From contig JAPLYZ010000011.1 in assembly GCA_026395295.1 (NCBI GenBank), forward strand, positions 1 to 63,816: 63,816 nt of DNA. Direction: 5' to 3'. Below the pieces are notes generated by a model. The model was not told where the DNA came from and ran no database searches. It worked only from the letters and a program-made list of their open reading frames with translations. This DNA is from Candidatus Staskawiczbacteria bacterium (GTDB lineage: Bacteria; Patescibacteriota; Minisyncoccia; Minisyncoccales; Staskawiczbacteraceae). Below, piece after piece: positions 635 to 61,699 of the stretch. The position numbers and the translations under genes are program-made. Positions within the stretch are counted from its first letter, which is position 1. Each line of letters starts with the position of its first letter.

Positions 635-700
635 TGGTGCCCTCGGCAGGATTCGCCCCGTCATCCGACGGGGCGTCGGGTCGCATGACCCGACGAACTC
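635..700 (-). repeat. tRNA-3'-end echo with double hairpin in the T-loop, copy 1
   Basis: GAGTT CG tcgggtc-atgc-gacccga CG ccccgtc-ggat-gacgggg CG AATCCTGCCGAGGGCACCA, directly 3' of tRNA-Arg(TCG). Confidence 0.85.
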
Positions 701-702
701 TT

Positions 703-777
703 TGGTGCTCCCGGCACGACTCGAACGTGCAACGTCTGCTTCGAAGGCAGGAATGATATCCATTTCACCACGGGAGC
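703..777 (-). tRNA. tRNA-Arg(TCG)
   Basis: GCTCCCGTGGTGAAATGGATATC...CT TCG AA...GTTCGAGTC...CGGGAGCACCA. Confidence 0.95.
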
Positions 778-836
778 CAGCAAGTGTTTCACCACGAGGG
801 CGATTTTTATTTTATTATACCAGTTTTTTGTATATT

Positions 837-1820
837 TTACAGCTCGTAGATCACTTTTGCCAGCTTGTCAGAGTCATGCCTAATAAGTGATCTTTCGGCG
901 CCAAGTTTGTCATTTTTATCAATTTTGTAAACTTTATGGCTTAGCAACTTGTGTTTCAAAAAATTAACGCCCGGCAAAATTTCAGCGTCTCCCAGCTCCA
1001 CCGGTTTCTCGCCAAATCTTGCATATTTTTTCAATAATTTTTGGTCAGGGGTTTCAGTGTTAAAAATGGCGTATTTGATAGCATTTTTTCCGACATATTT
1101 TTCCAGTTCAGAAATGTAATTTTCGGCAGTGAAGCTGTCGGTTTGGCCCAGCTCGGTCATTAAATTAACCGGGTATATTACTTTGGCTTTTGATTTGGCA
1201 ACATTTTCTGACAAACCATCAACCAAAAAATTTGGTATTAAGCTGGTGTAAAGGTCGCCCGGGCTGATTACTATTTTGTCTGCCTCTTTTAGCGCTTTAA
1301 AAATTTTGGGGTTTAATTCGGCGCGAGGTTTTAAATATAGTTTTTTAATGTTAGAAAATCCTCCTTTGTAAAGCTCAATATTTTTTTCTCCAATTATTTC
1401 TTTGCCATTTTTAAAAGAGGCCACAAGTCTTGTGTTTTTCAAGGTAACCGGCAAAACATATCCGCGGATTCTCAAAATTCTGCTGGCTTCTACTACCGCT
1501 GTGTCAAAGCCTCCGGTAATTTTTTCTAAGGTAGATAAAAATATGTTTCCAAAACTGTGGCCTTTTAGCCCGCCGTCGCCATATCTGTAGTTAAAAAGTT
1601 CGCGCAAAGTTTTGTCAGATTGCGACAAAGCCACTAAGCACTGCCTTACGTCGCCGGGGGGTAAAACTCCAAGCTCGTCGCGCAAAACTCCGGTTGACCC
1701 GCCATCGTCAGACATTGTAACTATTGCCGACAAATCCACATTGGGATATTTTTTCAGCCCCGACAAAACCATAAAACTGCCCGAGCCTCCGCCAATTACA
1801 ACAATTTTTTGTTTATTCAT
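837..1820 (-). CDS. yvcK: YvcK/CofD-like (UPF0052) gluconeogenesis/cell-wall factor
   Basis: KIVVIGGGSG, MSDDGGSTGVLR, PPGDVRQC, GHSFGN, PGDLYTS; start moved to MNKQK. Confidence 0.9.
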   Translation of the reverse strand: MNKQKIVVIGGGSGSFMVLSGLKKYPNVDLSAIVTMSDDGGSTGVLRDELGVLPPGDVRQCLVALSQSDKTLRELFNYRYGDGGLKGHSFGNIFLSTLEKITGGFDTAVVEASRILRIRGYVLPVTLKNTRLVASFKNGKEIIGEKNIELYKGGFSNIKKLYLKPRAELNPKIFKALKEADKIVISPGDLYTSLIPNFLVDGLSENVAKSKAKVIYPVNLMTELGQTDSFTAENYISELEKYVGKNAIKYAIFNTETPDQKLLKKYARFGEKPVELGDAEILPGVNFLKHKLLSHKVYKIDKNDKLGAERSLIRHDSDKLAKVIYEL

Positions 1821-2187
1821 TTTCGTTTGCAAAAACAATTTTGAATTCAATGCCGTGGTTTTTAAAGCCGGCTTTTTCATACATTTTATGCACACCCTCT
1901 CTTTCGTGCCGGCTGTTGGCAATGAGTTTGTAGCAGCCGATTTTTTTTGCCTCGGAAACGACCATGTTTATCAACTCGGTGCCAATTCCCTGACCGCGAA
2001 GGCTTTCATCAACAAACAAATCTTCTAAAAATCCAAACGGCTCTTTATGCAAATCGTTTTTCATAATATATAGAAAAGCCCGGGCAACTTCTTTTTTGCC
2101 ACCTGCCTCGCCGTTAGGCGGGTCTTTCTCCACAAAAAACTTTATTCCCTCTGCCTCAACTATTTTTTTGTTTATCTCCGTTTCCAT
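1813..2187 (-). CDS. GNAT family N-acetyltransferase (carries an in-frame palindrome, PPNGEAG)
   Basis: LEDLFVDESLRGQGIGTEL acetyl-CoA motif A; MYEKAGF. Confidence 0.88.
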   Translation of the reverse strand: METEINKKIVEAEGIKFFVEKDPPNGEAGGKKEVARAFLYIMKNDLHKEPFGFLEDLFVDESLRGQGIGTELINMVVSEAKKIGCYKLIANSRHEREGVHKMYEKAGFKNHGIEFKIVFANENE

Positions 2188-2225
2188 GTCAAAATGTATG
2201 TTAAATGCTATTATGGTTTGTCTGA

Positions 2226-2819
2226 TTATTTATCAAATTTAATGCTTGATACGATTTTTTCTATAATTTGGTTATTGAAGCATGCTTGCTTCGGCCAACA
2301 CTCCCAGTCTAATCTGTATGCATTCTGTCCATGAATGAAAGTTATGTTTGTATGTTCTTGTCCTTGCTTGGTTATTTGTATAGATATATTGTTCGTAACA
2401 ATATTTTCTGTGGTAGTTGGGGTATTGGAATTATAAGAAACCTTGGGGACTGACTGATTGTCGGTTATTGACGCGCCATATTCTTTTGCCTCTTGGATAT
2501 TGTATATCGTCAAGCCAAAAAAAGATCCTAGTTTTACGAGATTAGATTGGAAATTTATTCTTTTTGGATAACCAATCATGTTTTCCTCTGTGACAAACCC
2601 AGTTGGGTAAATTATTTCAAGCCCAAGTTGCGAGTTATTGTAGGTGCTCCAATTATCAATAACAACATTTTCAGGTTTTGTAGTTTGCAAAGCGTTTGAT
2701 TTAAATATGTTTTTGATAATTAAGTATCCCGTAGGAAAATTTTTGACGATTAAATATCCCGAGAAAATAATTATAAAAACCAATATGACGATAAATATGG
2801 TAGTTAGTATCTTTTTCAT
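2226..2819 (-). CDS. Membrane-anchored hypothetical protein (PsbP-like extracellular domain)
   Basis: N-terminal TM helix; W-x-T-Y-x-N...YP and C-terminal IVSSIKF pattern. Confidence 0.6.
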   Translation of the reverse strand: MKKILTTIFIVILVFIIIFSGYLIVKNFPTGYLIIKNIFKSNALQTTKPENVVIDNWSTYNNSQLGLEIIYPTGFVTEENMIGYPKRINFQSNLVKLGSFFGLTIYNIQEAKEYGASITDNQSVPKVSYNSNTPTTTENIVTNNISIQITKQGQEHTNITFIHGQNAYRLDWECWPKQACFNNQIIEKIVSSIKFDK

Positions 2820-2953
2820 TTTTTAAATTTATGATTTTTAATCTATATTTGTTTTATTTTACATAAAAAATTGAAAAAAAGCAAATTCAAGAAAAAAAGA
2901 GGGCACCCTTTGAGAGAAGTGCCCATTGCTGTTCGAAGTTCGTCGAACCTGTT

Positions 2954-4303
2954 TTACTGACCTGTCCGTGTTTGGCTGATTCCATCTGGCCATAGCCCGG
3001 GGATCCTGAAACCGTTAAACCAATCTGCATCGGGGTAATCGGTATCAAGAATTCCGGAATTTGGTGTCCAGATAAAGAAGCCAAGCGGAGCAGGAGATAG
3101 CTGGTCGAATGTTTTTCCCGACCAGCCAGCTTCTTCGGTGAGCATGGTGGTGACTAATACCGATGATGGACTGACGTTTCCGAGCAAGCCGTCCACTTGG
3201 AAGTAGCGTGTTGTCCCAGCGGCAATCTCCAGAATTCTTCTCACCCCATCGACTTGCGGGTAAAATTCGGCCACACCGTTAGTTTCCGACGACGGAGAGA
3301 CAACCTGAGCCGGCGCGAGCAACCTGCCATCGGTAGATGACCTTATGGCAACCGAAACATTGCCTACGTCAGAACCAGCGAGCCTGAAGCTCAATTTCCC
3401 TATGCCAATGTCTCCTGACGGATCAGCCGAGATGGAAAACTTGAGCAATGTGTTTGGGGTATAGCTGATCAGGTGATTCGGGGAAATTGGTTCCCACATT
3501 ATGGCGGGATACGACTTTGCCAAAATCATGTTTTGACCCTTGGCACACCCGACAGCCGTGATTTGTTTGCCAGAATTTAATAGAACCCCCTGCGTTTGAG
3601 AAGCATCGGATACTATCGCGATGATGTCGCCAGATCTTCCCGACGAACAAGGACTAATGGGCGCAAAATCTGTCCTCACAATAATCTCTGTCGCTGAATT
3701 TGCCGGCAATGTAATTGGCGGAGACAAGAAGATTACAGCAGAGGTTTGGCCGTTCATGAAATAAGCTTCTCCAAGAAGCGATGATGAACTCCAGCTCCCG
3801 ACAGTCACGCGCACAATATCTTGTTGAACATTTGTAGCCGTTGAGCTTAGAGTTATTCCCAATTTTTGCAAACAGATCGACTCGTACAAAGAAGTCAATT
3901 TGAACACGACAGAAACTACGCCGGTTGACCCGCCGGTAACAAACCTCGACACAGGACTATTCGGGGCTAAAGACACAATCAACTCTGGCGTTAACTGTAG
4001 GAAGCGGTAAAACGCTTGATTCGCCCCCGAAGTTATTGGCAGGGTTACGTCGAACGTGTCAGAAGTGGCGGTTATGGGTTGCTGGTTGAGCACACGCCAG
4101 AGACCGAGAGTCAGTGTCCCTTCGGACGTTGACTCTTGAATCTGGTACAGCTCCCCAGCCTTCCCGTGGACCACAAATCTGGCCGTGCCATCGCCCTTCG
4201 GGTGGAACTCAATGCTCCCCGAATTGGTTTGGGCGAGCGTCGTTGTTGGCCAACATGCGGCAATGGCTGCTATTATCGTTGCTATCATTACTTTCATATT
4301 CAT
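2954..4303 (-). CDS. Secreted beta-rich hypothetical protein, compositionally atypical
   Basis: ATG at 4303 preceded by AGGAG; signal peptide ...TTLA-Q; visibly more GC-rich than neighbours; hairpin downstream near 2901-2925. Confidence 0.7.
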   Translation of the reverse strand: MNMKVMIATIIAAIAACWPTTTLAQTNSGSIEFHPKGDGTARFVVHGKAGELYQIQESTSEGTLTLGLWRVLNQQPITATSDTFDVTLPITSGANQAFYRFLQLTPELIVSLAPNSPVSRFVTGGSTGVVSVVFKLTSLYESICLQKLGITLSSTATNVQQDIVRVTVGSWSSSSLLGEAYFMNGQTSAVIFLSPPITLPANSATEIIVRTDFAPISPCSSGRSGDIIAIVSDASQTQGVLLNSGKQITAVGCAKGQNMILAKSYPAIMWEPISPNHLISYTPNTLLKFSISADPSGDIGIGKLSFRLAGSDVGNVSVAIRSSTDGRLLAPAQVVSPSSETNGVAEFYPQVDGVRRILEIAAGTTRYFQVDGLLGNVSPSSVLVTTMLTEEAGWSGKTFDQLSPAPLGFFIWTPNSGILDTDYPDADWFNGFRIPGLWPDGISQTRTGQ

Positions 4304-5996: not shown

Positions 5997-6003
5997 AAAA
6001 CAA

Positions 6004-6076: not shown

Positions 6077-6090
6077 CTTTTATAAATTTA

Positions 6091-6153: not shown

Positions 6154-6227
6154 GGGCCTGTAGTAAAGTGGCATTACGCCTCGTTCGCAACGAGGAGGCG
6201 GCAGTCCGATTCTGCCCAGGTCCACCA
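6154..6227 (+). tRNA. tRNA-Ala(CGC)
   Basis: CCTCG TT CGC AA CGAGG; G3:U70 identity pair; encoded CCA; T-loop variant TCCGATT. Confidence 0.93.
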
Positions 6228-6381: not shown

Positions 6382-6621
6382 ATGTTCTACGTATATATTT
6401 TGCAAAGTGAAAAAGATAAAAGCAGATATATTGGAGTTACTTCTGATTTGAAAAGGCGTATCAGCGAACATAATTCTGGAAATGCAAAATACTCTAGTTC
6501 AAAACGGCCGTATAGGCTGATTTGGTATTGTGCTTTTTTAGACAAAATAAAGGCATATGATTTTGAAAAATATTTGAAATCCAGCTCGGGATACGCATTC
6601 ACGAATAAGAGATTTTTATAA
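6382..6621 (+). CDS. Small stand-alone GIY-YIG nuclease (UPF0213/Slx1-like)
   Basis: MFYVYILQS...YIGVTSDLKRRISEHN...RPY...AYDFEKYLK; start at ATG 6382. Confidence 0.92.
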   Translation: MFYVYILQSEKDKSRYIGVTSDLKRRISEHNSGNAKYSSSKRPYRLIWYCAFLDKIKAYDFEKYLKSSSGYAFTNKRFL

Positions 6622-12297: not shown

Positions 12298-13209
12298 ATG
12301 GCAAAGGTTGCCGGGACAATTGAAGTTACAGATGAAGAATATCCTGACATTTTGAAAAGCGCGCTGGAAAAACTTCAGCCTTGTTTGGGGCCAAAAAAAT
12401 TGTATTGGAAAGGAAATTATTCTGACGACATTTTTGGGAATTGTCTGGCGGTTGTTGGTTCGCGAAGGCTTACATCTTATGGCAGAAAGGCAACAGAGCA
12501 AATTGTAACCGAGGTTGCTGCCTCGGGTGTTACCATTGTTTCGGGGTTTATGTACGGAGGCGATGAAGCAGCGCACTCGGCAGCAGTAAAATGCGGAGGC
12601 AAAACCATTGCTGTAATGCCTTGCGGAATTGATTTAATACATCCTGCAAATCAAAAAGATCTTTACCAGAAAATTTTAGACAACAACGGACTGATTATTT
12701 CCGAGTACGAGGGTTTAACCCAACCTCAAACTTTCACCTATATCCAGCGCGACAGAATTGTGGCTGGGCTTTCAAAAGCGGTTTTAGTTACAGAGGCGGC
12801 TTTAGAATCGGGCTCTTTGATTACAGCTGGTTATGCTAAAAAATATGGCAGAAAAATTTTTGCTTTGCCAGGGCAAATTACCAGCGAAGTTTCGAAAGGA
12901 ACAACAAAGCTGATAAAAGAAGGGGCCGAACCTGTGGCTGAGGCCAAAGATATTTTAGACTTTTTCAAAATTACGCCAAAATTTTCAAAAAAAACATCCC
13001 ATCACAATCTCAGCGATAGCGTGAAATCTGATGGTATTGCTGGCATGCTTGAAGAAAAAATTATAGAACAATTAAAATTAGAGCCCATGAAAGCCGACGA
13101 AATGGCGCGGTTGTTTGCGGTTCCTGTTGCCCAGCTTGGTACAGCCCTTTCACTGATGCAGTTAAAAGGATTCATCAACCACGACAACGGAAAATATTAT
13201 TTAAACTAA
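12298..13209 (+). CDS. dprA: DNA-processing protein DprA
   Basis: AVVGSR, IVSGFMYGGD, RDRIVAGLS, SGSLITA, C-terminal winged helix. Confidence 0.92.
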   Translation: MAKVAGTIEVTDEEYPDILKSALEKLQPCLGPKKLYWKGNYSDDIFGNCLAVVGSRRLTSYGRKATEQIVTEVAASGVTIVSGFMYGGDEAAHSAAVKCGGKTIAVMPCGIDLIHPANQKDLYQKILDNNGLIISEYEGLTQPQTFTYIQRDRIVAGLSKAVLVTEAALESGSLITAGYAKKYGRKIFALPGQITSEVSKGTTKLIKEGAEPVAEAKDILDFFKITPKFSKKTSHHNLSDSVKSDGIAGMLEEKIIEQLKLEPMKADEMARLFAVPVAQLGTALSLMQLKGFINHDNGKYYLN

Positions 13210-22485: not shown

Positions 22486-22626
22486 ATTTATGGGCGAGGG
22501 GATAAGCTTGTATGGTAAAACAAAGGGAAAAGATGAATAGTAAGTTTTTTGGCTCGAGCCAAAAAACTTACTAAACGCTAAACTAGGTACTAAAACAAAT
22601 CAGCTAGGTTGTCGTACGACAACCTA
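22486..22626. repeat. ~140-bp direct repeat with two long palindromes, copy 2
   Basis: 36-bp perfect palindrome at 22538-22573; TAGGTTGTCGTACGACAACCTA at 22605-22626. Confidence 0.85.
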
Positions 22627-30754: not shown

Positions 30755-30756
30755 CT

Positions 30757-30827
30757 CTTGAGCAGGTAAGGGGAGTCGCCCCGTCATTCGACGGGGCGCC
30801 CTATCGGATGATAGGGCGAACCCATTT
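30757..30827 (-). repeat. tRNA-3'-end echo with double hairpin in the T-loop, copy 2
   Basis: AAATGGGTT CG ccctatc-atcc-gataggg CG ccccgtc-gaat-gacgggg CG ACTCCCCTTACCTGCTCAAG; last 22 nt identical to the tRNA-Gly 3' end. Confidence 0.9.
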
Positions 30828-30835
30828 GAAGCTTG

Positions 30836-30906
30836 AGCAGGTAAGGGGAGTCGAACCCCTCTCATTAGCTTGGAAAGCTAAGGTAATACCGATATACGAT
30901 ACCTGC
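30836..30906 (-). tRNA. tRNA-Gly(TCC)
   Basis: GCAGGTATCGTATATCGG...TTAGC TT TCC AA GCTAA...GGTTCGACTCC. Confidence 0.95.
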
Positions 30907-35481: not shown

Positions 35482-35553
35482 GCCCCTGTAGTTCAATGGA
35501 TAGAACAGCTCACTCCTAACGAGCAAATCCAGGTCCGATTCCTGGTGGGGGCA
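35482..35553 (+). tRNA. tRNA-Arg(CCT)
   Basis: GCCCCTGTAGTTCAATGGATAG...CT CCT AA...GGTCCGATTCC...GGGGGCA. Confidence 0.92.
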
Positions 35554-35555
35554 CT

Positions 35556-35625
35556 AAATGGGTTCGCCCTATCATGCGATAGGGCGCCCAGTCGGATGAC
35601 TGGGCGATTCCTACCGAGGGCACTA
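35556..35625 (+). repeat. tRNA-3'-end echo with double hairpin in the T-loop, copy 3
   Basis: AAATGGGTT CG ccctatc-atgc-gataggg CG cccagtc-ggat-gactggg CG ATTCCTACCGAGGGCACTA. Confidence 0.9.
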
Positions 35626-35633
35626 ATAAAATA

Positions 35634-35813
35634 ATGCAATATATGTTAACGCCAAAATCAGCAGAAAAAATTCAAGATGAAATTTATTATAATATGCCTT
35701 CTGAGAAAAAGATAAGGCTGACGAGCCAGTTTTTTATGCTTGGTAAAAAATTAAAAGAATCTAAAACAGTTTCAAAAAATGAATCCGGAAGAACTATTAG
35801 CCGAGATAGCTAA
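35634..35813 (+). CDS. Small protein, probable partner of the downstream nucleotidyltransferase
   Basis: 59-aa ORF (..AEKIQDEIYYNMPSEKKIRL..) overlapping the next start; below the ORF-track cutoff. Confidence 0.55.
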   Translation: MQYMLTPKSAEKIQDEIYYNMPSEKKIRLTSQFFMLGKKLKESKTVSKNESGRTISRDS

Positions 35814-36248
35814 AATTTTAAAAGACCTGAAAATTTCCTATGCCATCACAGGCGGGTTTGCGGTGTCTGTTTGGGGGAGGCCAAGATATACAGCCGATAT
35901 TGATATTGTTGTAGAGTTGATAGAAAAGAACATAAAACCGCTGGCATAAAAGTTGATTTTTTTGTGATGAACGACAGCCCATATAACAAGTTAAAAGTAA
36001 AAAGAGCGGTGTTGCGAGATATGTACGGAGCAAAAGAATTTTTTGTTTCCCCGGAGGATCTAATTTTAAGTAAACTAACTTGGGCAAAAGAAAGTTCTTC
36101 TCAAAAACAATGGGAAGATATCAAAACCGTTTTGAAAAATTCTAAAATAAAGCTGGATTTTAAATATCTCAAAGTTTGGGCGCGAGAGCACGAAACTATA
36201 GACACTTTGAATGATTTAATGAGAGAGCGAGGGTTAAGTGGTTATTAA
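35779..36248 (+). pseudogene. Nucleotidyltransferase (DUF6036/AbiEii-like) broken by an internal deletion and frameshift
   Basis: N-part ITGGFAVSVWGRPRYTADIDIVV stops at 35949; C-part GIKVDFF..SPEDLILSKL..QWEDI is in another frame. Confidence 0.75.
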
Positions 36249-36256
36249 GTATTTTT

Positions 36257-37291: not shown

Positions 37292-40200
37292 ATGGATAAA
37301 AATATATTTCGTTTACGCAATATTCTGTTGGGAGTTTTTTGTGTGGCGCTGATTTCCGTTGGTCTGTATTTTTTTATGGGTAGCCAATCGGGTCTAAACA
37401 TATCTTACAGCGAGAATTATAGGCTGGTCCCGGAAAAAATATCTCAATCAGCTGCTATAAGAATTTCTTTGCCCAAAGGCGTTGATAAACAACTGGCTGA
37501 AAAAGGCGTTACTTTTGACCCGCAAATAAAAGGAACTTGGGTGGAAGGAAAGCAAACAGCATGGTGGCAAGCGCAAAAGGCGATAGCGGCAATTACCGAG
37601 CAAAAAATAAATACAAATTTTATTGTTTTTAAACCGCAGAATTCTTTGGACTTAGATAAATATTATGCGGTTAAGGTTGATTTAGGACAAGGGAAAATTT
37701 TAGCCAGTGATTTCTTGGTGGCGGAAAATCCGAAAGTAAATGCCATTTTTCCGGCCGTAAACTCAGAAGCTCCTGACAATTCTAAAATTACAATAATTTT
37801 TAATCGGCCAATGGTTCCTGTAACAACCATTGATCAATTGGAAGGGCAAAGCATTCCGGTGGAAATAAGCCCTGCCACTGACGGAAAGTTTAAATGGATA
37901 AGCACAAATACGCTTCAATTTATTCCAAAAGACCATTTGAAAAGATCTGCTAACTATACAGTTAAAGTAAAAAATGGATTCACTTCCATGGACGGTTTGG
38001 CGGTGTCTAACTCTGAAAGCTCTTTTCAGGTTTTAAAATTGAGGTATGCTGACAGTGAAAATTACACCTTAATCCAAAGCCAAATTTACAACCAGCCTGT
38101 AAGGATATATTTTAACCAGCCGGTTGATTTAAGCAAAACAAAATCAAAAATAAAAATAACTGACGGAAACACCAACCAAGAAATTCCTTTTGTGGCGGAA
38201 TATGCTTTGAAAACTCAAGATGAGACAAAGAATAACCCGCAATACAAAACAGGAGATAATTTTAGTGGAGGTTTTGGGTTTAATTTTGTTGATCGGCTGA
38301 CAGCCAGTCTTCTGGATATTTTTACCGGCAAAAAGGGAGAGGTTGACCAGTCAATAATTGAACTCTATCCTAAAAAAGATTCTTTTGGCAGGAGCAAGTT
38401 TTGGGATTTCAACAAAAATTATACAGTTACTGTGAGTGGGGCCTACTCCAAAGAGGGAGATATAGCCCTGGATACTTCCAAAATAATAGATGTGCGCACA
38501 GCCGGCGTTGTCAACCAAGGGTCTGCGCATTCAGACAGGACCAATTTAGCAAGTTTAAATTTATTTGATCCTCAGGGATACTTAACCCTGACCTTTTTTG
38601 AAGACATAAATTTATCTAAAAGCCGAATTACCGCCGGTAATTTACAAAAAATAGAATATGGCCAAAAGTGCAAAGACGAGAACAGCTATTACGACCCGAA
38701 TTGCGAGAAAATTCAGGATAACAAAAAAATAAACATATATTTTAAATCCAGTGAAATAAAGCCCGGAGATAAACTCAGTGTCAACTTAGAGAAAGTGGTT
38801 AATACCGGCGGTTTGCAAATAAATAAAGATACTATAAACATCGGCATTTTGACTTATGGCCCGCTGACAATCAGTTTGGGCGATTCGTCAAAGTCTTATA
38901 GTAATTTAGACAAAAAATATTTGGACGGTTTTTATTTGTGTTCAAATAATCCTTTGGCCACCCCGGATAAAAAAGAATTTAAGCAGAAAATTTCCGGAAA
39001 TCTTGATTTCCAAATTAATTCTTTCAGTCAGTCTTGGCCATCATCTGGCGTTTCTCAGGCTTGTCCTTTGGGAACAATGATGACTTTTGTAAGAGGGGGG
39101 TTTGCGCCTGAAAGCATCTATAATCTTAATTTAGATTTGAATGATGTTTTTGGTCAAAATATTAAGAAGCAAATTTCTTTTAGCACAGGAACCATGGAAG
39201 CAGGCAGCGCATATGCCTTTGGGTTGCAACAGAGATATAGCGTTACTTCTCCGCAAAACGCGGTTTTAAATTTTGGCGCGCAGAATGTTTCTTATGTTGA
39301 CTTGGCCATTTGCAAGGCGTCGGCCATAGACTTTAAGCAAATGTATGACAGCAACATTATTGACTCTTCGGTTTGTAGTCAATACAAAACAAAACAAATA
39401 TCTTTGCCGGAAAAGTACTGGGTCAATAATTATTTTTCAGTAAATTTGGCAGATTATTTTACAGATCCGATAGGGAACTACGTGGTTTCCGTAAGCAATC
39501 CTTTGCTCTCAAATTATTCCGGTAAATTAAAAAATTATGTAACAGTGACTAATTTAGCTGTTGCGGAAAAGTCCATTGCCCCGGCAACAGATTATTTGGG
39601 CTCGGTTGAGGAGCAATTATCTTCACAACAGATAAGTAGCCTAAAAAATCTCTATTGGGTAACTGACATGAAAACCCAAAATCCAATTGCTGGAGCCAAG
39701 ATTAGCTTTTATGACAAAGGCGGAGGTTTGCTTGGCAATGCAACAACCAACAGTGACGGGTTGGCCTTTTCTGTGCCATCAATAGGAGCTGATTGCATTG
39801 TGGCCAGCTATGGGAGTGATAGCACAGTTGTTATGCAGAACAACGACCAAATGAACTGGAGTCAAAGCGCCTACAATTATAAAAAGACATTTATATATAC
39901 AGATAAGCCTTTATACAGGCCCGAGCAAACAGTGCATGCAAAAGGCATTCTGCGCATTGGCTACGACGGAAACTACGAAATGTTCAGTGACAAAACAATA
40001 GAGGTTAAAATCAGGAATTCTAAAGGAGTAATTGCTTTGGATAAAAATGTTGATATTAGCGCGTTCGGAACTTTTAACATTGACTTTGTTTTAGACAAAA
40101 ATTCTCCGCTTGGCACATACACCATTTGCGTTAAAGGAAGTTATGACTGCGCGTACTTTGACATTTTAGAATACGTTCCGGCGGCTTTCCAAGTCAGCCA

Positions 40201-43200
40201 AACTTCTTCAAAGAGCGAGTATATTTCTAAGGATACAGCAAATTTAGAGGTTGATGCCAATTATTATTTTGGCGCCCCGGTTGATAACTCCGAGGTGAGT
40301 TATACAATCAGCAGCCAAAATTATTATTTTGACAGGTATACCGGCGACGAATGGTTTAATTTTGGATGGTGGGATGACAATTATTATGATTCGGGGTCAT
40401 ACTACTATGGAGACAAATTTATTTCTCGGGGCTCGGGCACAACTGACAAAGACGGCAAATTTAAATTTTCGCAGAAGCTTGATTTGCAGGAAATGCTAAA
40501 GAGCAGTCCTAATCAGGGCAGCAGAATAATAGTTTTAGACTCAACTGTTAAAAATAATTTGGGGCAAAGCGTTTCAGACCAAAAATCATTTATTGTCCAC
40601 GCCGGTAATTATTACATCGGAGTTAAAACAGACCCGTATTTTGTCGGTAAAAATCAGGATTTTAATTTGAAAGTAAAAACAGTTGATACCGAAGGCAAAG
40701 ATGTGGGAGTTGGAAACATAACAGCTGATATTTATGCTGTAAGCTGGGTTTATGCCAAGCGTCAGGAGGTAAGCGGAGCATTTAATTACAATTGGCAGGA
40801 GAAAAAAGATCTTGTTAAAACAATAAACTTTGGCACAGATAATAATGGAAACTGGAGCCAGAAGGTAAAACTAAATAAAGAGGGGCAATATGACATAGAA
40901 CTTTCGTCTCACGACAAAGCAGGAAACGAAATAAAATCTAAAACCAGCATTTATGTTTATGGAGAAGGCCAGGCGACTTTTATGTTTGATGACAGCACAA
41001 GTTTGAGCCTTAAAGCCAACAAGAAAGATCTTAAAGTTGGCGAACAGGGGCAGTTGATTATTGAGTCTCCTTATTCAAAGTCCAAAGCTCTAATTACCAT
41101 TGAACGCGGGAAGATATTTGATTACAAAATAGTTGATTTAACAGGAAATATTTTGGGGTATAATTTTACCGCCACAGATGATTATGCGCCTAATGTTTAT
41201 GTTTCAGTGTTGTTGCAATCGCCCGACCCGGCTGTAAAATTTGCGTCTCAGGAATTTACAGTAAACAGCGACAAATCAAAAATTGACTTGCAGGCGACTT
41301 CAGACAAAAAGTTTTACAACCCCGGGGATAATGTTAATTTGAGTATTGTGGCAAAAGACGCCAGCGGAAAACCGTTGAAAACAGAGGTCTCTGTGGCAGT
41401 TGTTGATTTGAGCGTTTTGGCATTGAAAGGGAATCCCAAAAAAGATCCTTTGGTCTTTTTCTACAATGGTTTCCCGCTTACTGTCTCCACTTCATCTAAC
41501 ATAAAAAATAAAATTGTTAGGATTGAGCCTGCCGACGCGTCAGATAGTAATAACTCTGAAACCAAGGGCGGGGGCGGAGGAGGCGGAGCTGATAATAAAG
41601 TCAGGGGCGATTTTCGAGACACAGCCTTTTGGTCTGCCACTGTGCAAACAGGCGACGATGGCAAAGCTCAGACTTCGTTTAAGCTCCCGGATAACTTAAC
41701 AACTTGGCAGGCAGAAGTTTTGGGCGTGACCAAAGACACAAAATTGGGCGTCGATTATCTTTCATTCCAAAGCAAAAAGGATCTTATGATTGTTCCATTA
41801 AAGCCCAGATTTATTGTTCCGGAAGACACTTTCAGCATTGGCGCCCAAGTGTTCAATCAATCAGACGGAGACAAAACATTTAAAGTTTCTTTCAAGAGCG
41901 ACACATTGCAACCTGCTGACAATAATAAAGAAAAAACAGTCAGGGTGAATAAAGGCGAGCAACAAACCGTGTACTTTGCGGTGAAGGCTCCGGCGAAATT
42001 TTATAGCGGCTCTCATAGCTTTACAATTTCAGCATCTGGCGGAGGATTACAAGATGCTGTAGCTCAAAGCATTGTAATCAGGCAGAATTCTACATATGAG
42101 GTTACAGCAACCGCCGGTTATACGCAGGGAAGTGACGCCAAAGAAGTAATTTATCTGCCATCCAATGTTTCTGCCAACAATGGAGATTTGACAGTCAAAA
42201 GTTCAGCTACCTTGGCGGTGTTTTTGTCCGATGCGTTAAACTATTTGATAAGCTATCCTTATGGATGCTCTGAGCAAATTTCCAGTAAGTTAAAAGCCAT
42301 TGCCATTATTAAAAATGGTTTGAAAATTCCTAATATGGCTGACAAGTTAAAGTTGGAAAAAGTTCTTTACAAAGACAAAGAATATACAATTGACCAGCTG
42401 GTTGATGTCGGGCTGTCTGACCTTTATAAGAACCAAAATGACGATGGCGGATTCAACATGTGGGGGGCAGGAGAATCAAATTATTTTATGACCCTCAGTG
42501 TTGTTGATGCTTTTAATTCTCTCAAGAAAGCCGGCTACACGGTTAATGCCGATGCGTTAAATAACGCGGCGGATTATCTGTTCAGATATTACAATGGTCC
42601 TGACTACAACCTTTCTGACGACGAAAAAATTTCTTTAGCTTCGGTGCTTTTGCAGACAGATGGTTATAGAAACAATGGTAACTTAATGCAAACAGTGAGC
42701 TCCATTATTACCGATGATTCGGCGATCAACGACCAACTAAGCCAGAAAGCGTTGGCCGAGCTTGGAGTTTTGGTTAGCAACAATTCTTTTGGCTCATATG
42801 CTACAACAAGAATTAACAACGCCCTTGATAATAGAATAAATATTGATTCAAGGGGAGCGTTTTTGTCCTTGCGCCAGGATAATTATTATTACGATTACTT
42901 TGAGTCAACAATTGGAGATACCGCCTTGTATCTTAAATCTCTTGCAGACGGGCAGCGCGACACTGCAATAACAGATAAAATAATAAGATGGATTCTTAAC
43001 TCTAAAGATAAAGATGGGGCATGGGGTTCAACGCAAAATACTTTAGCTGTTGTGGAAGCGTTTACAGATTATCTTAATTGGAAAAAAGAAACCGGCGCGG
43101 TTTATACATTAGATACGATTGTTAACGCTAAGAGCGTTGATAAGTTTGCGTTTAACGCTTCTACTATTCTAGAACAAAGCAAACAGGTGATTCCAATAAG

Positions 43201-43759
43201 CTCTTTGAGAGTGAACGATTACAACACTTTAGAACTAAAAAAGACAGGATCGGGGTCTTTGTATTATGATCTTGGCTTAAAATATTATCTTGAAGGAAAT
43301 GTTGAGCCAAGAGACGAGGGGTTCACTATCACGAGGCAGATGTATGCGTTAAGCGATAAATCTGGGAGCAACCCGCTGGCAAAAGCCAAAGCCGGCGACC
43401 TTGTCAGAGAGCACCTGACCATTGTGGCTCCGGTTGAACGTAGGAATGTTCAAATAGAAGACTTTATACCGGCTGGCATGGAAATTGTTGACTTAAGCCT
43501 GGCTACAGAGAGTAAGGACTTGAGATTTAATCAGGTCCAAATAAAAGCTCCTGAAATTTATCCGGACTTCAAAGAGATACGCGACGACAGGGCATACATT
43601 TATACTGCCCAATTAGATCCTGGCGTATACGAGTTTGACTATTATTTGAGAGCCTTGGTGCCTGGCGCTTATTCCCAGTTGCCGGCAGTAGTTTCAGAAA
43701 TGTACACGCCGGAAAATTTTGGCAGAACAGGCAGCGCAACGTTTCAAGTGACAAAATAG
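37292..43759 (+). CDS. Alpha-2-macroglobulin family protein
   Basis: Ig-like N-terminus, TDKPLYRP, FKLPDNLTTW, thioester YPYGCSEQ, WGSTQ, EMYTPE. Confidence 0.93.
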   Translation: MDKNIFRLRNILLGVFCVALISVGLYFFMGSQSGLNISYSENYRLVPEKISQSAAIRISLPKGVDKQLAEKGVTFDPQIKGTWVEGKQTAWWQAQKAIAAITEQKINTNFIVFKPQNSLDLDKYYAVKVDLGQGKILASDFLVAENPKVNAIFPAVNSEAPDNSKITIIFNRPMVPVTTIDQLEGQSIPVEISPATDGKFKWISTNTLQFIPKDHLKRSANYTVKVKNGFTSMDGLAVSNSESSFQVLKLRYADSENYTLIQSQIYNQPVRIYFNQPVDLSKTKSKIKITDGNTNQEIPFVAEYALKTQDETKNNPQYKTGDNFSGGFGFNFVDRLTASLLDIFTGKKGEVDQSIIELYPKKDSFGRSKFWDFNKNYTVTVSGAYSKEGDIALDTSKIIDVRTAGVVNQGSAHSDRTNLASLNLFDPQGYLTLTFFEDINLSKSRITAGNLQKIEYGQKCKDENSYYDPNCEKIQDNKKINIYFKSSEIKPGDKLSVNLEKVVNTGGLQINKDTINIGILTYGPLTISLGDSSKSYSNLDKKYLDGFYLCSNNPLATPDKKEFKQKISGNLDFQINSFSQSWPSSGVSQACPLGTMMTFVRGGFAPESIYNLNLDLNDVFGQNIKKQISFSTGTMEAGSAYAFGLQQRYSVTSPQNAVLNFGAQNVSYVDLAICKASAIDFKQMYDSNIIDSSVCSQYKTKQISLPEKYWVNNYFSVNLADYFTDPIGNYVVSVSNPLLSNYSGKLKNYVTVTNLAVAEKSIAPATDYLGSVEEQLSSQQISSLKNLYWVTDMKTQNPIAGAKISFYDKGGGLLGNATTNSDGLAFSVPSIGADCIVASYGSDSTVVMQNNDQMNWSQSAYNYKKTFIYTDKPLYRPEQTVHAKGILRIGYDGNYEMFSDKTIEVKIRNSKGVIALDKNVDISAFGTFNIDFVLDKNSPLGTYTICVKGSYDCAYFDILEYVPAAFQVSQTSSKSEYISKDTANLEVDANYYFGAPVDNSEVSYTISSQNYYFDRYTGDEWFNFGWWDDNYYDSGSYYYGDKFISRGSGTTDKDGKFKFSQKLDLQEMLKSSPNQGSRIIVLDSTVKNNLGQSVSDQKSFIVHAGNYYIGVKTDPYFVGKNQDFNLKVKTVDTEGKDVGVGNITADIYAVSWVYAKRQEVSGAFNYNWQEKKDLVKTINFGTDNNGNWSQKVKLNKEGQYDIELSSHDKAGNEIKSKTSIYVYGEGQATFMFDDSTSLSLKANKKDLKVGEQGQLIIESPYSKSKALITIERGKIFDYKIVDLTGNILGYNFTATDDYAPNVYVSVLLQSPDPAVKFASQEFTVNSDKSKIDLQATSDKKFYNPGDNVNLSIVAKDASGKPLKTEVSVAVVDLSVLALKGNPKKDPLVFFYNGFPLTVSTSSNIKNKIVRIEPADASDSNNSETKGGGGGGGADNKVRGDFRDTAFWSATVQTGDDGKAQTSFKLPDNLTTWQAEVLGVTKDTKLGVDYLSFQSKKDLMIVPLKPRFIVPEDTFSIGAQVFNQSDGDKTFKVSFKSDTLQPADNNKEKTVRVNKGEQQTVYFAVKAPAKFYSGSHSFTISASGGGLQDAVAQSIVIRQNSTYEVTATAGYTQGSDAKEVIYLPSNVSANNGDLTVKSSATLAVFLSDALNYLISYPYGCSEQISSKLKAIAIIKNGLKIPNMADKLKLEKVLYKDKEYTIDQLVDVGLSDLYKNQNDDGGFNMWGAGESNYFMTLSVVDAFNSLKKAGYTVNADALNNAADYLFRYYNGPDYNLSDDEKISLASVLLQTDGYRNNGNLMQTVSSIITDDSAINDQLSQKALAELGVLVSNNSFGSYATTRINNALDNRINIDSRGAFLSLRQDNYYYDYFESTIGDTALYLKSLADGQRDTAITDKIIRWILNSKDKDGAWGSTQNTLAVVEAFTDYLNWKKETGAVYTLDTIVNAKSVDKFAFNASTILEQSKQVIPISSLRVNDYNTLELKKTGSGSLYYDLGLKYYLEGNVEPRDEGFTITRQMYALSDKSGSNPLAKAKAGDLVREHLTIVAPVERRNVQIEDFIPAGMEIVDLSLATESKDLRFNQVQIKAPEIYPDFKEIRDDRAYIYTAQLDPGVYEFDYYLRALVPGAYSQLPAVVSEMYTPENFGRTGSATFQVTK

Positions 43760-56758: not shown

Positions 56759-56762
56759 AAAT

Positions 56763-57824: not shown

Positions 57825-57870
57825 AACTATACATTGCAGTTTAGTCAATTTTGAGGTAATATAAATAATT

Positions 57871-58347: not shown

Positions 58348-58360
58348 TTTGTGAATTTTT

Positions 58361-59911
58361 ATGGTAAAAAAACAACAAAAAAATAAAGAGATTTTGCAAG
58401 CGCGACCGCCGGTGGTAGTTGTTTTGGGGCACGTTGACCATGGCAAAAGTTCTCTTTTAGAGGCCATTAGAGATTTTAGAATAACTTCAAAAGAATCTGG
58501 TGGAATAACCCAGCACATTGGAGCTTATGAAATTGTTATGGATGGCAACCCGCCTTCGCCAGAGGCTTCGGCGAGGCAAAGGAAGATTACCTTTATTGAC
58601 ACTCCCGGGCACGAAGCATTTTCCGCAATGCGCGCCAGGGGAGCTGAGGTTGCTGATATTGCTTTGTTGGTTGTAGATTCGGCCCAATCGGTTCAGCCAC
58701 AAACAAAGGAAGCTGTCATGGCCATAAAAAGAGCGGAAATTCCGATGATTGTTGTGCTTAACAAAATTGACTTGCCGACAGCCAATCCCGGAAAAATAAA
58801 AGGCGAGCTTTCCAAAATAGATGTTTTGGTGGAATCTTTTGGCGGGACAATACCATCGGTTGAAGTCTCGGCTAAAGAAAAAACAGGAATTGATGAATTG
58901 CTGGAAGTTATATTATTGGTTGCTGATTTGCAAGAATTAAAGGCAGAGGTAGATGCGCCTGCAGAGGGCTTAATAATCGAGTCGTACATGGATGGTTCAA
59001 AGGGGCCGGTTGCGACTGCAATCATTAAAAAAGGTGTTTTGAGGGATAAGGATATTATTGCCACGGATTTAGCCATGGCTAAAGTAAAACACTTGGAAGA
59101 CTTTCAAGGCAAAGTGATTGAAGAGGCTTATCCTTCTCAGCCGGTTATTATTTTAGGATTTGAAAAAGTGCCGGCAGTAGGAGAAAAATTTAAGAGCTAC
59201 AAAACCGCAGAGGAGGCGATGGCAAAAATAAAAACAGAACAGCCCAAGAGAGAAATTGCTTCCGCTGTTTTAGACACAGACCCGAACAAAAAAGTTTTAA
59301 ATATGATTTTGAAAGGAGATGTTTTCGGATCGCTGGAGGCGATTGATGGAATGCTGAAAAATTTACCCCAGGATAAAGCCATTTTACGAATTTTGAAATC
59401 TGAGGTTGGAGAAATAAACGAAACAGACGCCAAGCTGGCGGAGATGTCTAAGGCTATAATAATAGGATTTCGCGTCAAAATTAGCCCATTGGTGGCGCAA
59501 TTTATGAAGAATGATTTAGATAGAAGGCTGAGGATAAAAACTTTTGATATAATTTACGAATTAATACAAGATGTGCGACGAAGTTTGGAAAAAACATTGG
59601 AAGCGGAAACAGTTAGAACCGACGTTGGAAAACTTAAAACACTGTTGGTTTTTTGGGGAGAAAAAAACAGGCAAATTGTTGGAGGGAAAATCACCGAGGG
59701 CGAGTTGAAAAAAGGACTCAAGTTGGAGGTTTTTCGTGAAGACAGAAAAGTGGGAGCCGGGAGGATTATTAACCTTCAGCGCGATAAAAAAGACATAGAC
59801 AAGCTTAGCAAGGGAGATGAAGCAGGCATACTTTTTGAAGGCAATATGAAAATTGAAAAAGGAGATATTTTAGTGGCTTACATAGAAGAACGAAAGAAGG
59901 GCGAGTTGTAA
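58361..59911 (+). CDS. infB: Translation initiation factor IF-2 (short form)
   Basis: RPPVVVVLGHVDHGKS, GGITQHIGAY, DTPGHEAF, NKID. Confidence 0.96.
   Translation: MVKKQQKNKEILQARPPVVVVLGHVDHGKSSLLEAIRDFRITSKESGGITQHIGAYEIVMDGNPPSPEASARQRKITFIDTPGHEAFSAMRARGAEVADIALLVVDSAQSVQPQTKEAVMAIKRAEIPMIVVLNKIDLPTANPGKIKGELSKIDVLVESFGGTIPSVEVSAKEKTGIDELLEVILLVADLQELKAEVDAPAEGLIIESYMDGSKGPVATAIIKKGVLRDKDIIATDLAMAKVKHLEDFQGKVIEEAYPSQPVIILGFEKVPAVGEKFKSYKTAEEAMAKIKTEQPKREIASAVLDTDPNKKVLNMILKGDVFGSLEAIDGMLKNLPQDKAILRILKSEVGEINETDAKLAEMSKAIIIGFRVKISPLVAQFMKNDLDRRLRIKTFDIIYELIQDVRRSLEKTLEAETVRTDVGKLKTLLVFWGEKNRQIVGGKITEGELKKGLKLEVFREDRKVGAGRIINLQRDKKDIDKLSKGDEAGILFEGNMKIEKGDILVAYIEERKKGEL
58549..58582 (+). 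repeat. Family A palindrome, in-frame in the IF-2 G domain (PPSPEASARQR)
   Basis: CCCGCCTTCGCCAGAGGCTTCGGCGAGGCAAAGG. Confidence 0.85.
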
Positions 59912-59953
59912 TTTTCAAATAAAAAGCCTCGCGTGGTAATCGCGGGGTTTTGC

Positions 59954-60106
59954 TCACCGTTTATCAGCGAAACATGACATGAAAAGACATATCGCGGCGC
60001 TGATAATACAGTAAGTGAAGCGGAGCAGAGTGTCGCCGGAAAGAAGGTCTATTATTCCGCCGGCGAGAAGCAGGAGTCCAATGATCTTAAAAATCTTTCG
60101 CGCCAT
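59954..60106 (-). CDS. Small two-helix membrane protein
   Basis: MARKIFKIIGLLLL..., AAAGGTGG Shine-Dalgarno upstream. Confidence 0.5.
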   Translation of the reverse strand: MARKIFKIIGLLLLAGGIIDLLSGDTLLRFTYCIISAAICLFMSCFADKR

Positions 60107-60196
60107 GGTATGCCCACCTTTCTGTAGTTTGCTCATTTTGCTTCCACAAAGTGAATTGTAAAAGGAGCTACTGATATATTATCAAATAAAGAAATA

Positions 60197-60553
60197 ATGT
60201 CAAATAGAATTGATAAAATAAATTCTTTGTTAGAACACGAAATAGGGAAAATAATTTCCAGGGATTTTGCTTTTTCCCCAGAAATTTTGGTCACCTTAAC
60301 GCGTGTTGCAACAACGTCCAACCTAATTGAAGCAAAAGTTTACATTTCTGTTTTCCCTGAAGAAAAGTTAGCAGGAATTATTAATGCCCTGCAAAAGTCG
60401 GTTTATGATATCCAATACAAAATTAACAGAACATTACGCCAGCGCCCAATACCCAAAATAAAATTCGTTAAAGAGACAGAAATTAGCAGAGCCGCGAAAA
60501 TTGAAGAATTGTTGGTTAAAGCAAGAGAAAGCGACCAGAAAGTTGAAAAATAG
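60197..60553 (+). CDS. rbfA: Ribosome-binding factor A
   Basis: RIDKINSLL, AKVYISV, RPIPKIKF; follows infB. Confidence 0.9.
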   Translation: MSNRIDKINSLLEHEIGKIISRDFAFSPEILVTLTRVATTSNLIEAKVYISVFPEEKLAGIINALQKSVYDIQYKINRTLRQRPIPKIKFVKETEISRAAKIEELLVKARESDQKVEK

Positions 60554-60619
60554 GAAAAAATAAAGTAAATTAGAAGAAGGTGGCACCCCGCTTAGCGGGG
60601 TAATAGCCATGATAAGCAT

Positions 60620-60694
60620 GGCACGGTAGCCAAGCAGTAAGGCAGGGGTCTGCAAAACCCCTATACGTGGGTGCAATTCCCGCCCGTGCCTCCA
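60620..60694 (+). tRNA. tRNA-Cys(GCA)
   Basis: GGGGT CT GCA AA ACCCC; U73 followed by CCA. Confidence 0.95.
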
Positions 60695-60695
60695 T

Positions 60696-60779
60696 GCCCT
60701 GGTGGTGGAATGGTATACACGCAACACTTAAAATGTTGTGAGGCTTGTCCTCATGCGGGTTCGACTCCCGCCCTGGGCA
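60696..60779 (+). tRNA. tRNA-Leu(TAA)
   Basis: CAACA CT TAA AA TGTTG; long variable arm. Confidence 0.95.
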
Positions 60780-60781
60780 CT

Positions 60782-60823
60782 AAAAACAAAAAGCTCTGCT
60801 TTTATGCAGAGCTTTTTGTTTTT
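60782..60823. terminator. Bidirectional intrinsic terminator
   Basis: AAAAACAAAAAGCTCTGC-ttttat-GCAGAGCTTTTTGTTTTT. Confidence 0.8.
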
Positions 60824-60827
60824 AGTG

Positions 60828-61268
60828 CTAGCTTTCTAAAACTTCTATGTCAACTATTTTAGCCCCAAAGTTTACTGCCGACTCTCTGTCGGGCATCCAG
60901 ATGTCCACGTGGTAATTTCCTTTCTTTTTGTTCATTCTGTCTTCAACAACGAAAACCTTGTCTCCATATAAATCTGGTATCCTAACCTCGGTACCGAAAG
61001 GTAACATATTGTTGGCGATTATGCCGTCTTCTACGCATTTCCCAGACGCGGTGACAAATGGGCTATCGTCTGTTTGGTCAAGGGTGCTGGAATAAGCAGT
61101 AATAACAACTTTAACCGTTTTAACAACCTTAGGAATGTCCATGTATGGAGCATTAACTGCGCCGGGGAAGTCAGCATCGGTTGTTTGGGGCATAAATAGG
61201 GCCGACAAGCAGATACAGGTCATTATGCCTATTAAAATAACTTTAAATGTATTCATAATGTTTATCAT
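60828..61268 (-). CDS. 3D-domain (cell-wall) protein
   Basis: TAYSS..QTDDSP..TASG, LPFGT, VEDR, VDIW. Confidence 0.85.
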   Translation of the reverse strand: MINIMNTFKVILIGIMTCICLSALFMPQTTDADFPGAVNAPYMDIPKVVKTVKVVITAYSSTLDQTDDSPFVTASGKCVEDGIIANNMLPFGTEVRIPDLYGDKVFVVEDRMNKKKGNYHVDIWMPDRESAVNFGAKIVDIEVLES

Positions 61269-61374
61269 TTACAAAAAACTCCCTTTCGGAAGTATGCATA
61301 TATGTTAGCATAATTTATTATCCGTGTCAATAGTTTTGAAGCAAAAAAAGCCCACCTTTTAGGTGGGCGATTTG

Positions 61375-61446
61375 AGCGGGTGAGCAGAATCGAACTGCCG
61401 TCTTAACCTTGGCAAGGTTACATAATAGCCACTATACGACACCCGC
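61375..61446 (-). tRNA. tRNA-Gly(GCC)
   Basis: TAACC TT GCC AA GGTTA; GCGGGTG/CACCCGC. Confidence 0.95.
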
Positions 61447-61451
61447 TTACG

Positions 61452-61528
61452 TGGTGCCTGGAGCCAGACTTGCACTGGCCACCCCAGCTTTTTCAGAGCT
61501 GTGCTCTAACTACCTGAGCTATCCAGGC
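61452..61528 (-). tRNA. tRNA-Phe(GAA)
   Basis: CAGCT CT GAA AA AGCTG; encoded CCA. Confidence 0.95.
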
Positions 61529-61538
61529 GTAAATTTTG

Positions 61539-61611
61539 TGGACGCTGCAGGACTCGAACCTGCGACCCTCTCAGTGTAAATGAGATGCTCTACCAACTGA
61601 GCTAAGCGTCC
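61539..61611 (-). tRNA. tRNA-Val(TAC)
   Basis: TCTCA TT TAC AC TGAGA. Confidence 0.95.
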
Positions 61612-61633
61612 ATTGGGTGACGAAAAAGACCTT

Positions 61634-61699
61634 TGTGCGCGGGACAGGAGTCGTCCAGTCATCCGACTGGACGACTCCTGTCGTATGACTGGACGAACC
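61634..61699 (-). repeat. tRNA-3'-end echo with double hairpin in the T-loop, copy 4
   Basis: GGTT CG tccagtc-atac-gacagga GT CG tccagtc-ggat-gactgga CG ACTCCTGTCCCGCGCACA. Confidence 0.85.

Follow-up and report, generated by a model that had tools for sequence, protein, structure and literature searches.

Hairpin pairs behind four tRNA genes

The stretch of DNA analysed here, called the window throughout, comprises positions 1 to 63,816 (63,816 nucleotides, nt) of contig JAPLYZ010000011.1 from Candidatus Staskawiczbacteria bacterium (assembly GCA_026395295.1; Patescibacteriota), and the element in question is a pair of short hairpins that breaks a tRNA 3' end at the T-loop. A previous sequence-only reading had reported four copies, and four are indeed present, each 7-16 nt 3' of an intact tRNA gene called by ARAGORN and Rfam. 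A pair consists of CG, an 18-bp hairpin unit, CG, the inverted unit and CG, normally 42 nt; the unit is made of five variable bases, TCATnCGA and the complement of the five, giving a stem of five variable base pairs plus TC/GA and a 4-nt loop. As that reading had described, the cores TCATnCGA and TCGnATGA face each other with one CG common to both units, in silico excision of 40 nt (42 nt in copy 4) restores GTTCGAnTCC in all four copies, and copies 2 and 3 are identical in 33 of their first 34 nt. Downstream of each pair follow the remainder of the T-loop, a T-stem strand and an acceptor 3' strand, here called the 3' stump. The features are listed below with their strand.

635-655 (-): copy 1, what is left of the native tRNA-Arg(TCG) on its 3' side (3' stump), reaching from the T-loop CG as far as CCA; it ends like the intact orthologue at L228 and differs from the preceding tRNA
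654-695 (-): copy 1, hairpin pair, built as described above
696-702 (-): copy 1, short spacer with a GTT remnant at its end
703-786 (-): copy 1, intact replacement tRNA-Arg(TCG) (703-777; ARAGORN/Rfam) and 9 nt of probable donor flank (778-786)
787-801 (-): copy 1, 5' stump of 15 nt from the native tRNA-Arg(TCG), with the same sequence as the genus alleles have at their start
30755-30778 (-): copy 2, 3' stump, matching the tRNA-Gly(TCC) 3' end without difference, and 3 nt of flank
30777-30818 (-): copy 2, hairpin pair, spanned by independent contigs
30819-30906 (-): copy 2, spacer with ATGGGTT at its end (30819-30834), then an intact tRNA-Gly(TCC) of the genus type (30835-30906)
35482-35564 (+): copy 3, intact tRNA-Arg(CCT) (35482-35554) and spacer ending ATGGGTT
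35565-35606 (+): copy 3, hairpin pair, spanned by independent contigs
35605-35626 (+): copy 3, 3' stump of a different tRNA-Arg allele, whose T-stem misfits the preceding tRNA
61634-61653 (-): copy 4, 3' stump left from the native tRNA-Leu(GAG); 7 of the 20 genus orthologues have the same 3' end
61652-61695 (-): copy 4, hairpin pair of 44 nt, spanned by independent contigs
61696-61786 (-): copy 4, spacer and intact foreign tRNA-Leu(GAG) (61704-61786), matching 0 of 20 genus orthologues at the locus
22607-22624 (unstranded): single sister-type hairpin with a GGTTG stem and the same core, intergenic

Copies 1-3 fold as two separate hairpins, but the claim that the stems are paired does not extend fully to copy 4, where the first hairpin is imperfect and the locus folds instead, together with the stump, into a single 18-bp hairpin. 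The middle of this pair is an inverted copy of the adjoining stump, which is why the pair is two bases longer than the others, and which would fit the footprint of a fold-back or a template switch. On sequence comparison, the tails of copies 1, 3 and 4 are not copies of the preceding tRNA.

An assembly artefact is ruled out for copies 2-4, as Logan contigs run across each of them with 0 differences; the spanning contigs include runs X7 and X8, neither of which is flagged as a possible source of the assembly, and copy 4 is spanned by contigs from X1, X7, X8 and the RNA run X12. Rfam, at its gathering score, matched only tRNAs in the window.

Empty sites, replaced tRNA genes and spread

Orthologous loci of the same genus are almost all empty: 16 of 17 for Arg(TCG) (2 of 19 loci, in which no tRNA-Arg was seen, being left out), 17 of 18 for Gly(TCC), 10 of 10 for Arg(CCT), where orthologues were matched by tRNA rather than by synteny, and 20 of 20 for Leu(GAG). 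The earlier proposal that the DNA is a mobile, non-autonomous unit, joined with precision at the T-loop CG, is supported. The orthologues also show what lay there before. None of the 20 Leu(GAG) orthologues resembles the intact window gene, while seven end exactly as the copy-4 stump does. At Arg(TCG), the 5' stump and the 3' stump of the genus allele bracket a different tRNA, whose acceptor stem is unlike that of all 17 orthologues, and the acceptor strand of the 5' stump pairs with the 3' stump. At Gly(TCC) the intact gene belongs to the genus allele, and the stump matches it without difference; at Arg(CCT) stump and intact gene resemble different genus alleles, the stump being one base off each of L233, L234 and L243.

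Two sites are occupied. Site L218 (Arg(TCG), genome G024) has the same layout and the same break as the window, and site L510 (Gly(TCC), genome G011) carries an independent pair behind a different allele; at both, the pairs, spacers and replacement tRNAs differ from those of the window, and L218 is an independent event at the same break. The orthologues show the stump to be the 3' end of the native tRNA, and the intact tRNA in front of it to be often a replacement allele, most clearly so for Leu(GAG) and Arg(TCG). We therefore take the mobile unit to be "tRNA gene + spacer + pair", with an exact join at the T-loop CG; it follows that this CG is the fixed junction and the other junction a variable one, yielding duplication or replacement. 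An element of ~50 bp and no more, as first proposed for the tRNA sites, is too small a unit: the moved DNA there often includes a whole replacement tRNA gene.

In the 903-kb source genome (G000) a search for single units gave 38 matches, as against 0, 0 and 1 in three shuffled versions, so that chance is ruled out. A tolerant census found 12 pairs. Seven adjoin tRNA 3' stumps, namely those of the window plus Arg-CCG, Ser-GGA and Glu-CTC; four lie in frame inside RelA/SpoT, TsaE, GtrA-like and AlkD-like genes, and one lies between genes. The intergenic pair is in direct orientation, the remaining 11 are inverted. With five of the 12 pairs away from tRNAs, the confinement to tRNA flanks that the sequence-only reading had expected fails, and this reading had itself named dispersal among the findings that would speak against it. 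Same-genus orthologues of the four pair-bearing protein genes lack the insert. In the AlkD-like gene the pair takes the place of 13 nt between two separate CA dinucleotides and adds 27 nt net; the GtrA-like gene has gained 24 nt net. Units without a partner are found in ligA (two sites), gatA, gyrA and sod as well as between genes; the orthologue comparison of these genes covered all but sod, and the single 22-nt insertions have one sharp and one ragged edge.

Two further kinds of palindrome were noticed in this context. Lone hairpins of the sister type, which combine a GGTTG-type stem with the same core, stand between genes at window 22607-22624 and elsewhere in the genome at C10:66275, 67014 and 67251, C6:26066 and C11:105416; the three on C10 are one gene apart and resemble a small cassette array. 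Other palindrome fragments occur in two genes that hold pairs in G000, the gtrA-like gene of genome G006 (L307) and the alkD-like gene of genome G020 (L323), the latter at the same spot as the G000 pair, which suggests possible insertion hot spots in tolerant protein loops.

The outside sample was anchored in DNA matches and comprises 120 metagenome stretches and 12 phylum loci; its figures refer to the matches listed and include related genomes, which are not independent, so that they are to be read as counts and not as tests. It holds at least 134 distinct matches, 127 of which have at least 8 of the 10 free stem positions paired; the other seven, with unpaired stems, were dropped from the counts out of 127 and out of 43 below. 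The stem covariation claimed from four copies is borne out on this larger scale: 1279 of 1340 positions are paired, compared with a mean of 797 and a maximum of 828 in 500 shuffles, and some stem positions show four pair types. The dinucleotides at the flank, middle and flank read XY, reverse complement and XY in 120 of 127 pairs. There are 73 stem combinations among the 134 matches, the commonest all with two different stems; the halves of a pair are thus modular, and some pairs include a sister hairpin whose loop is another one. At L030, L039, L047, L080 and L084, for instance, hairpins with deviating loops, e.g. GGATAAACC, make up one half or both, which shows an exchange of halves between hairpin families. 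In addition, tandem amplification of units of tRNA end and pair, or two nuclease cassettes in a row, is seen at L061, L016, L435 and L461.

A T-loop context was found for 79 of the 127 pairs, and pairs also occur at anticodon-loop CGs. The layout of the window, without a gene between tRNA and pair, accounts for 43 pairs with 26 anticodons and spacers of 7-65 nt, and in 16 of these 43 the stump equals the end of the intact tRNA. The exact pair pattern occurs eight times in G000, once each in 4 of 40 relatives and in one or two copies in 11 of 400 phylum genomes; G000 is unusually rich in pairs. Viral contigs gave 103 exact core matches, 0 of them with at least 8 of 10 stem positions paired, and hence no phage reservoir is seen with this pattern.

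The sequence-only reading had described the site as one T-arm split in two, and had offered a co-transcribed tRNA-like RNA, acting as a processing signal or decoy, as an alternative to a mobile element. The GGTT remnant to the left of the pair completes a full 5-bp T-stem with the stump in just 6 of the 43 gene-less outside cases, which means that the two sides mostly stem from different tRNA genes and that the remnant is mostly donor-derived; the pairing between remnant and stump averages 3.2 pairs as against 2.9 when shuffled, a mean reached by 25 of 1000 shuffles, so any excess of T-arm reconstitution is at most slight. This low count speaks against an RNA role too. While the element does lie on the tRNA's strand, directly behind the tRNA, and one contig from an RNA library (in which DNA could be present) covers copy 4 and its neighbours, a tRNA-like decoy does not agree with the lack of an acceptor 5' strand, with units that face opposite strands, or with copies inside open reading frames (ORFs). 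Nor do the stem mismatches show a G-U strand bias, the same pair is found in protein genes and upstream of nuclease genes, and there is no Rfam match. No discrete RNA was seen in runs X9 or X12: X12 covers copy 4 by a single 887-nt contig, and X9 leaves copies 2-3 uncovered except for a 44-nt look-alike from another sequence. We thus consider an RNA function very improbable.

A linked clade of small GIY-YIG nucleases

The sequence-only reading had asked which nuclease, integrase or HUH gene accompanies the element; the linked gene belongs to a clade of small GIY-YIG nucleases and is neither an integrase nor an HUH enzyme. There are 0 matches to PF01797 (the Y1/RAYT transposase family) in G000, which is 97.6% complete, and none of its three tyrosine recombinases (PF00589) has a unit within several kb. 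On this account it seems most improbable to us that the pairs are att-site scars, left when islands driven by an integrase into the T-loop were later deleted. A duplicated tRNA 3' end is the classic footprint of an island (PMC9897764), and G000 does have the three recombinases, but the hairpin tracks the GIY-YIG clade rather than any of them, pairs occur inside ORFs, and the matches in viral contigs were unpaired and chance-like.

G000 has 10 GIY-YIG matches, eight of which are small genes. Two of these encode mutually related, single-domain proteins that match PF01541 only, P0001 (92 residues) and P0002 (90 residues); both are linked to hairpins and lie outside the window. On contig C15 the cassette is complete, with tRNA-Glu, nuclease gene, pair and an identical 3' stump, while on contig C9 the nuclease-linked units lie inside a 5' duplicate of tRNA-Ile. 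Among P0001-clade loci, taken as the best 80 of 103 relatives, a unit lies within 200 bp of the gene in 68 and a tRNA in 73; the 49.9 kb near the gene hold 137 units, the 175 kb further away 18. Of 24 other small GIY-YIG ORFs, a single one (L469) is accompanied by a unit, and that unit belongs to the sister GGTTG type; these ORFs come from a control set of 38 loci that are the top Pfam scorers rather than a random draw, with 12 loci without a scoring ORF left out. The P0001 clade has a support of 100/97 in a tree with every fifth clade protein. The hairpin is thus tightly linked to, and a signature of, one clade of ~90-residue GIY-YIG proteins. NCBIfam has no family above its cut-off for the candidate nuclease, and a PDB search by sequence gave two weak UPF0213 GIY-YIG matches and nothing else.

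The predicted active-site residues Y5, Y15, G17, R25, H29 and E60 are nearly invariant in the clade; internal stops occur in 7 of the 80 genes. The cassettes come in two mirror layouts, tRNA-gene-pair-3' stump and 5' stump-pair-gene-tRNA, and in the former the stop codon of the gene lies inside the pair in 17 of 19 cassettes. At locus L014 a native tRNA-Val is split at the T-loop CG, with an identical pair at both ends and a new tRNA-Val and the nuclease gene inside.

Other small GIY-YIG genes of the genome also neighbour tRNAs or repeats. One of another clade lies in the window at 6382-6621 (+), behind tRNA-Ala(CGC) (6154-6227); it has a paralogue at C20:11744-11953 with the same structured upstream sequence, and gene and structure are likely to form another nuclease-repeat pair. 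At C11:75040-75452 (L008) a GIY-YIG gene stands between a 5' duplicate of tRNA-Leu(CAA) and the intact tRNA, and the duplicate is broken by a 20-bp CCTGCC-type palindrome, the same design with a different hairpin. A third, at C8:26053-26277 (L006), has repeats of the NTS/SRM type on both sides and is apparently an Ssn-family gene in Patescibacteria. As to the remaining window, the region directly after copy 3, 35635-36250 (+), holds short AT-rich ORFs, one of which we take by eye to be nucleotidyltransferase-like; these may be an unrelated small insert at the tRNA of copy 3. The longest ORF of the window, 2155 residues, lies at 37292-43759 (+).

Proposed movement and relation to known systems

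From the observed structure, stem covariation, empty sites, allele replacement, in-frame protein insertions and hairpin-clade linkage, we conclude that the copies are inverted pairs of 18-bp hairpins joined precisely at a tRNA T-loop CG, and consider it probable, though well short of certain, that they represent a mobile element without a gene of its own, for whose movement a dedicated GIY-YIG nuclease of ~90 residues, encoded at another place in the genome, is responsible. On this reading the element is REPIN-like and non-autonomous, with the clade nuclease likely acting on single-stranded hairpins. We suggest that the nuclease would bind the TCATnCGA hairpin as single-stranded DNA, one unit per strand, and cut in two places, at the base of the hairpin and at a CG or CA in a loop of the target, the 3' end of which would become attached to the hairpin. 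At its other end the incoming DNA (the spacer, with or without the nuclease gene and a tRNA gene) would be joined imprecisely by host repair. A second join downstream of the first cut would produce a duplication, as in copy 2, one upstream of it a replacement, as in copies 1, 3 and 4; were both ends hairpin ends, a bare pair would land in a gene. A carried or rebuilt tRNA could render insertion into essential tRNA genes harmless. We speculate that single-stranded donor DNA is supplied by replication or by natural transformation; Saccharibacteria are described as naturally competent (PMC10187176), and G000 has the competence genes dprA, at window 12298-13209 (+), and comEC, at C11:51560-52363. 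The 22-nt single insertions, the rule for the middle dinucleotide and the fold-back of copy 4 would fit such a cut-and-join process.

Several points weigh against this reading. Later template switching together with selection for pairing could explain the same three features, and the co-location of gene and hairpin does not prove catalysis. Covalent strand-transfer intermediates are not known for GIY-YIG enzymes, and joining therefore needs host enzymes. A clade nuclease gene lies within 350 bp of just 30 of the 127 sampled pairs, although many flanks are short, and the same-genus genomes G011, G013, G019 and G041 have pairs with no close clade gene found there; the search pattern, moreover, fixed only the pair cores and left the stem positions free. 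All 12 pairs of G000 are mutually different, hence there was no recent clonal burst. In the Logan population contigs no joint skips copies 2-4, although these contigs drop rare variants and their lack of excised alleles therefore does not show that excision is absent. Finally, the spacer at L331 consists of the final ~45 nt of a nuclease gene, and the spacers of copies 2 and 3 finish with the same 8 nt as the nuclease cassettes L014 and L016; both observations fit plain gene loss.

The last two observations, along with the internal stops in clade genes, favour an alternative in which gene-less copies are decay products of nuclease cassettes inserted at tRNA genes, and bare pairs were never mobilised in trans. 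Some gene-less copies, such as L331, do look clearly like deletion products, and the loss of the nuclease gene from a full cassette is likely for some of them. As a general account we nonetheless think decay unlikely: four bare pairs lie in frame within protein genes and show no trace of a tRNA or a gene, single units lie inside ligA, gatA, gyrA and sod, stems are still fully paired in most copies, and in the 3'-stump layout 43 gene-less cases stand against 5 with a nuclease gene between and 7 with other cargo.

Homing offers another route by which tRNA alleles may be exchanged. The phage T4 enzyme SegB recognises the T-arm motif of tRNA genes, cuts there to give 3' ends of 2 nt, and promotes the spread of neighbouring tRNA genes (PMC2330249); it is likewise a free-standing GIY-YIG enzyme among tRNA genes, which compares with the frequent tRNA neighbours of the clade loci. 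If a double-strand cut at the T-arm were followed by gene conversion that copies the donor allele, the pair would just disrupt the cut site, in keeping with the common T-loop CG context and the exchanged tRNA alleles. The intact tRNA beside the element, however, usually retains a normal TTCGA loop, and the cut site is therefore not removed; gene conversion would leave neither stumps nor foreign flanks; where protein genes carry an insertion, homology to tRNA is lacking; and stem covariation at the level of structure points to recognition of the hairpin. We thus regard homing of this type as improbable. An immunity model, by which the intact tRNA would lack the CG loop, was also considered and fails at most loci. 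As far as PMC2330249 describes it, SegB homes by double-strand break repair between phages and without dedicated hairpin ends, whereas here the protein is a ~90-residue catalytic domain alone, is chromosomal, and leaves stumps and gene-less derivatives.

The nuclease-moved hairpin pair that we favour compares with several known systems. In that of Ssn and the NTS/SRM repeats, a gene for a ~90-residue, single-domain GIY-YIG protein is likewise tightly linked to its own oriented, genome-dispersed hairpin (Chenal et al. 2025, PMC11893778); SsnA cuts single-stranded DNA beside its own hairpin, and while its authors raise a mobile-element origin, it is cutting and not mobility that they show (PMC11893778). 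Here, in contrast, the repeat is different and the protein clade apparently so, the units form head-to-head pairs sharing one dinucleotide, tRNA loops are targeted, replacement tRNA genes are carried and ORFs are entered in frame; a term search of the available text of PMC11893778 gave 0 mentions of tRNA or Patescibacteria. In a scan of the loci concerned, the SRM pattern is present beside the G000 gene at L006 and absent beside P0001 and P0002, and, as regards the cd10448 clade to which Ssn proteins belong, the SRM-flanked protein splits from the P0001 clade with a support of 100/99, albeit on a long branch and from 85 columns.

REPINs are likewise non-autonomous doublets of inverted palindromes, with singlets as remnants, that are presumed to be mobilised in trans by RAYT, a nuclease that binds hairpins (PMC3337134), and some copies of REPINs and of GTAG/CGTC REP dimers lie in ORFs, as here (PMC3337134, PMC3733652). 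The inverted pair of palindromic units is found here too, in 11 of the 12 pairs of G000. Compared with REPINs as these sources describe them, however, there is no spacer between the units and no long end-to-end fold but two adjacent hairpins with different stems, there is neither a RAYT/Y1 gene nor a conserved GTAG/CGTC tag at the stem end, and tRNA genes are carried and exchanged. Integrative elements that target tRNAs similarly bracket their DNA by an intact tRNA and a partial copy (PMC9897764); set against that description, no integrase lies near the pair, the cargo is 7-270 bp, one junction is fixed, and the whole tRNA gene is often replaced.

Rickettsial palindromic elements, too, are palindromic repeats in frame in protein-coding genes; the element described here has an unrelated sequence, is shorter, and has a candidate enzyme linked to the repeat. 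A literature search, the scope of which excluded subscription papers and supplements, brought up no published description of the element, though the supplementary motif tables of PMC11893778 could list relatives. The element would work like a REPIN with a GIY-YIG nuclease in the place of RAYT, yet it appears to belong neither to the REPIN/RAYT nor to the Ssn/SRM repeats.

As a tentative and rather doubtful extension, the nuclease might suffice for transposition by itself: a GIY-YIG protein of ~90 residues, without transposase, recombinase or reverse transcriptase, would graft its own 18-bp hairpin onto cut 3' ends of either strand, the hairpin 3' end would copy the target dinucleotide by fold-back synthesis, and two capped ends would join into a pair. 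If this were true, it would be a new class of transposition: chemistry by a nuclease alone would swap whole tRNA genes between lineages and write new peptide loops into proteins, and sister clades of nucleases and hairpins would explain many orphan palindromic repeats in bacteria.

As the proposal specifies a candidate enzyme, a substrate of 42 bp and a precise target (a loop CG or CA), it can be tested with oligonucleotides and one small protein. Should the enzyme be a sequence-specific single-strand nuclease, it would add a new specificity of the Ssn kind. The findings touch on two open questions, how REP-like palindromes spread without RAYT and how palindromes enter proteins in frame. tRNA genes are usually taken as stable; in these reduced genomes they are overwritten by alleles of other lineages, which matters for tRNA-based phylogeny and for the prediction of islands.

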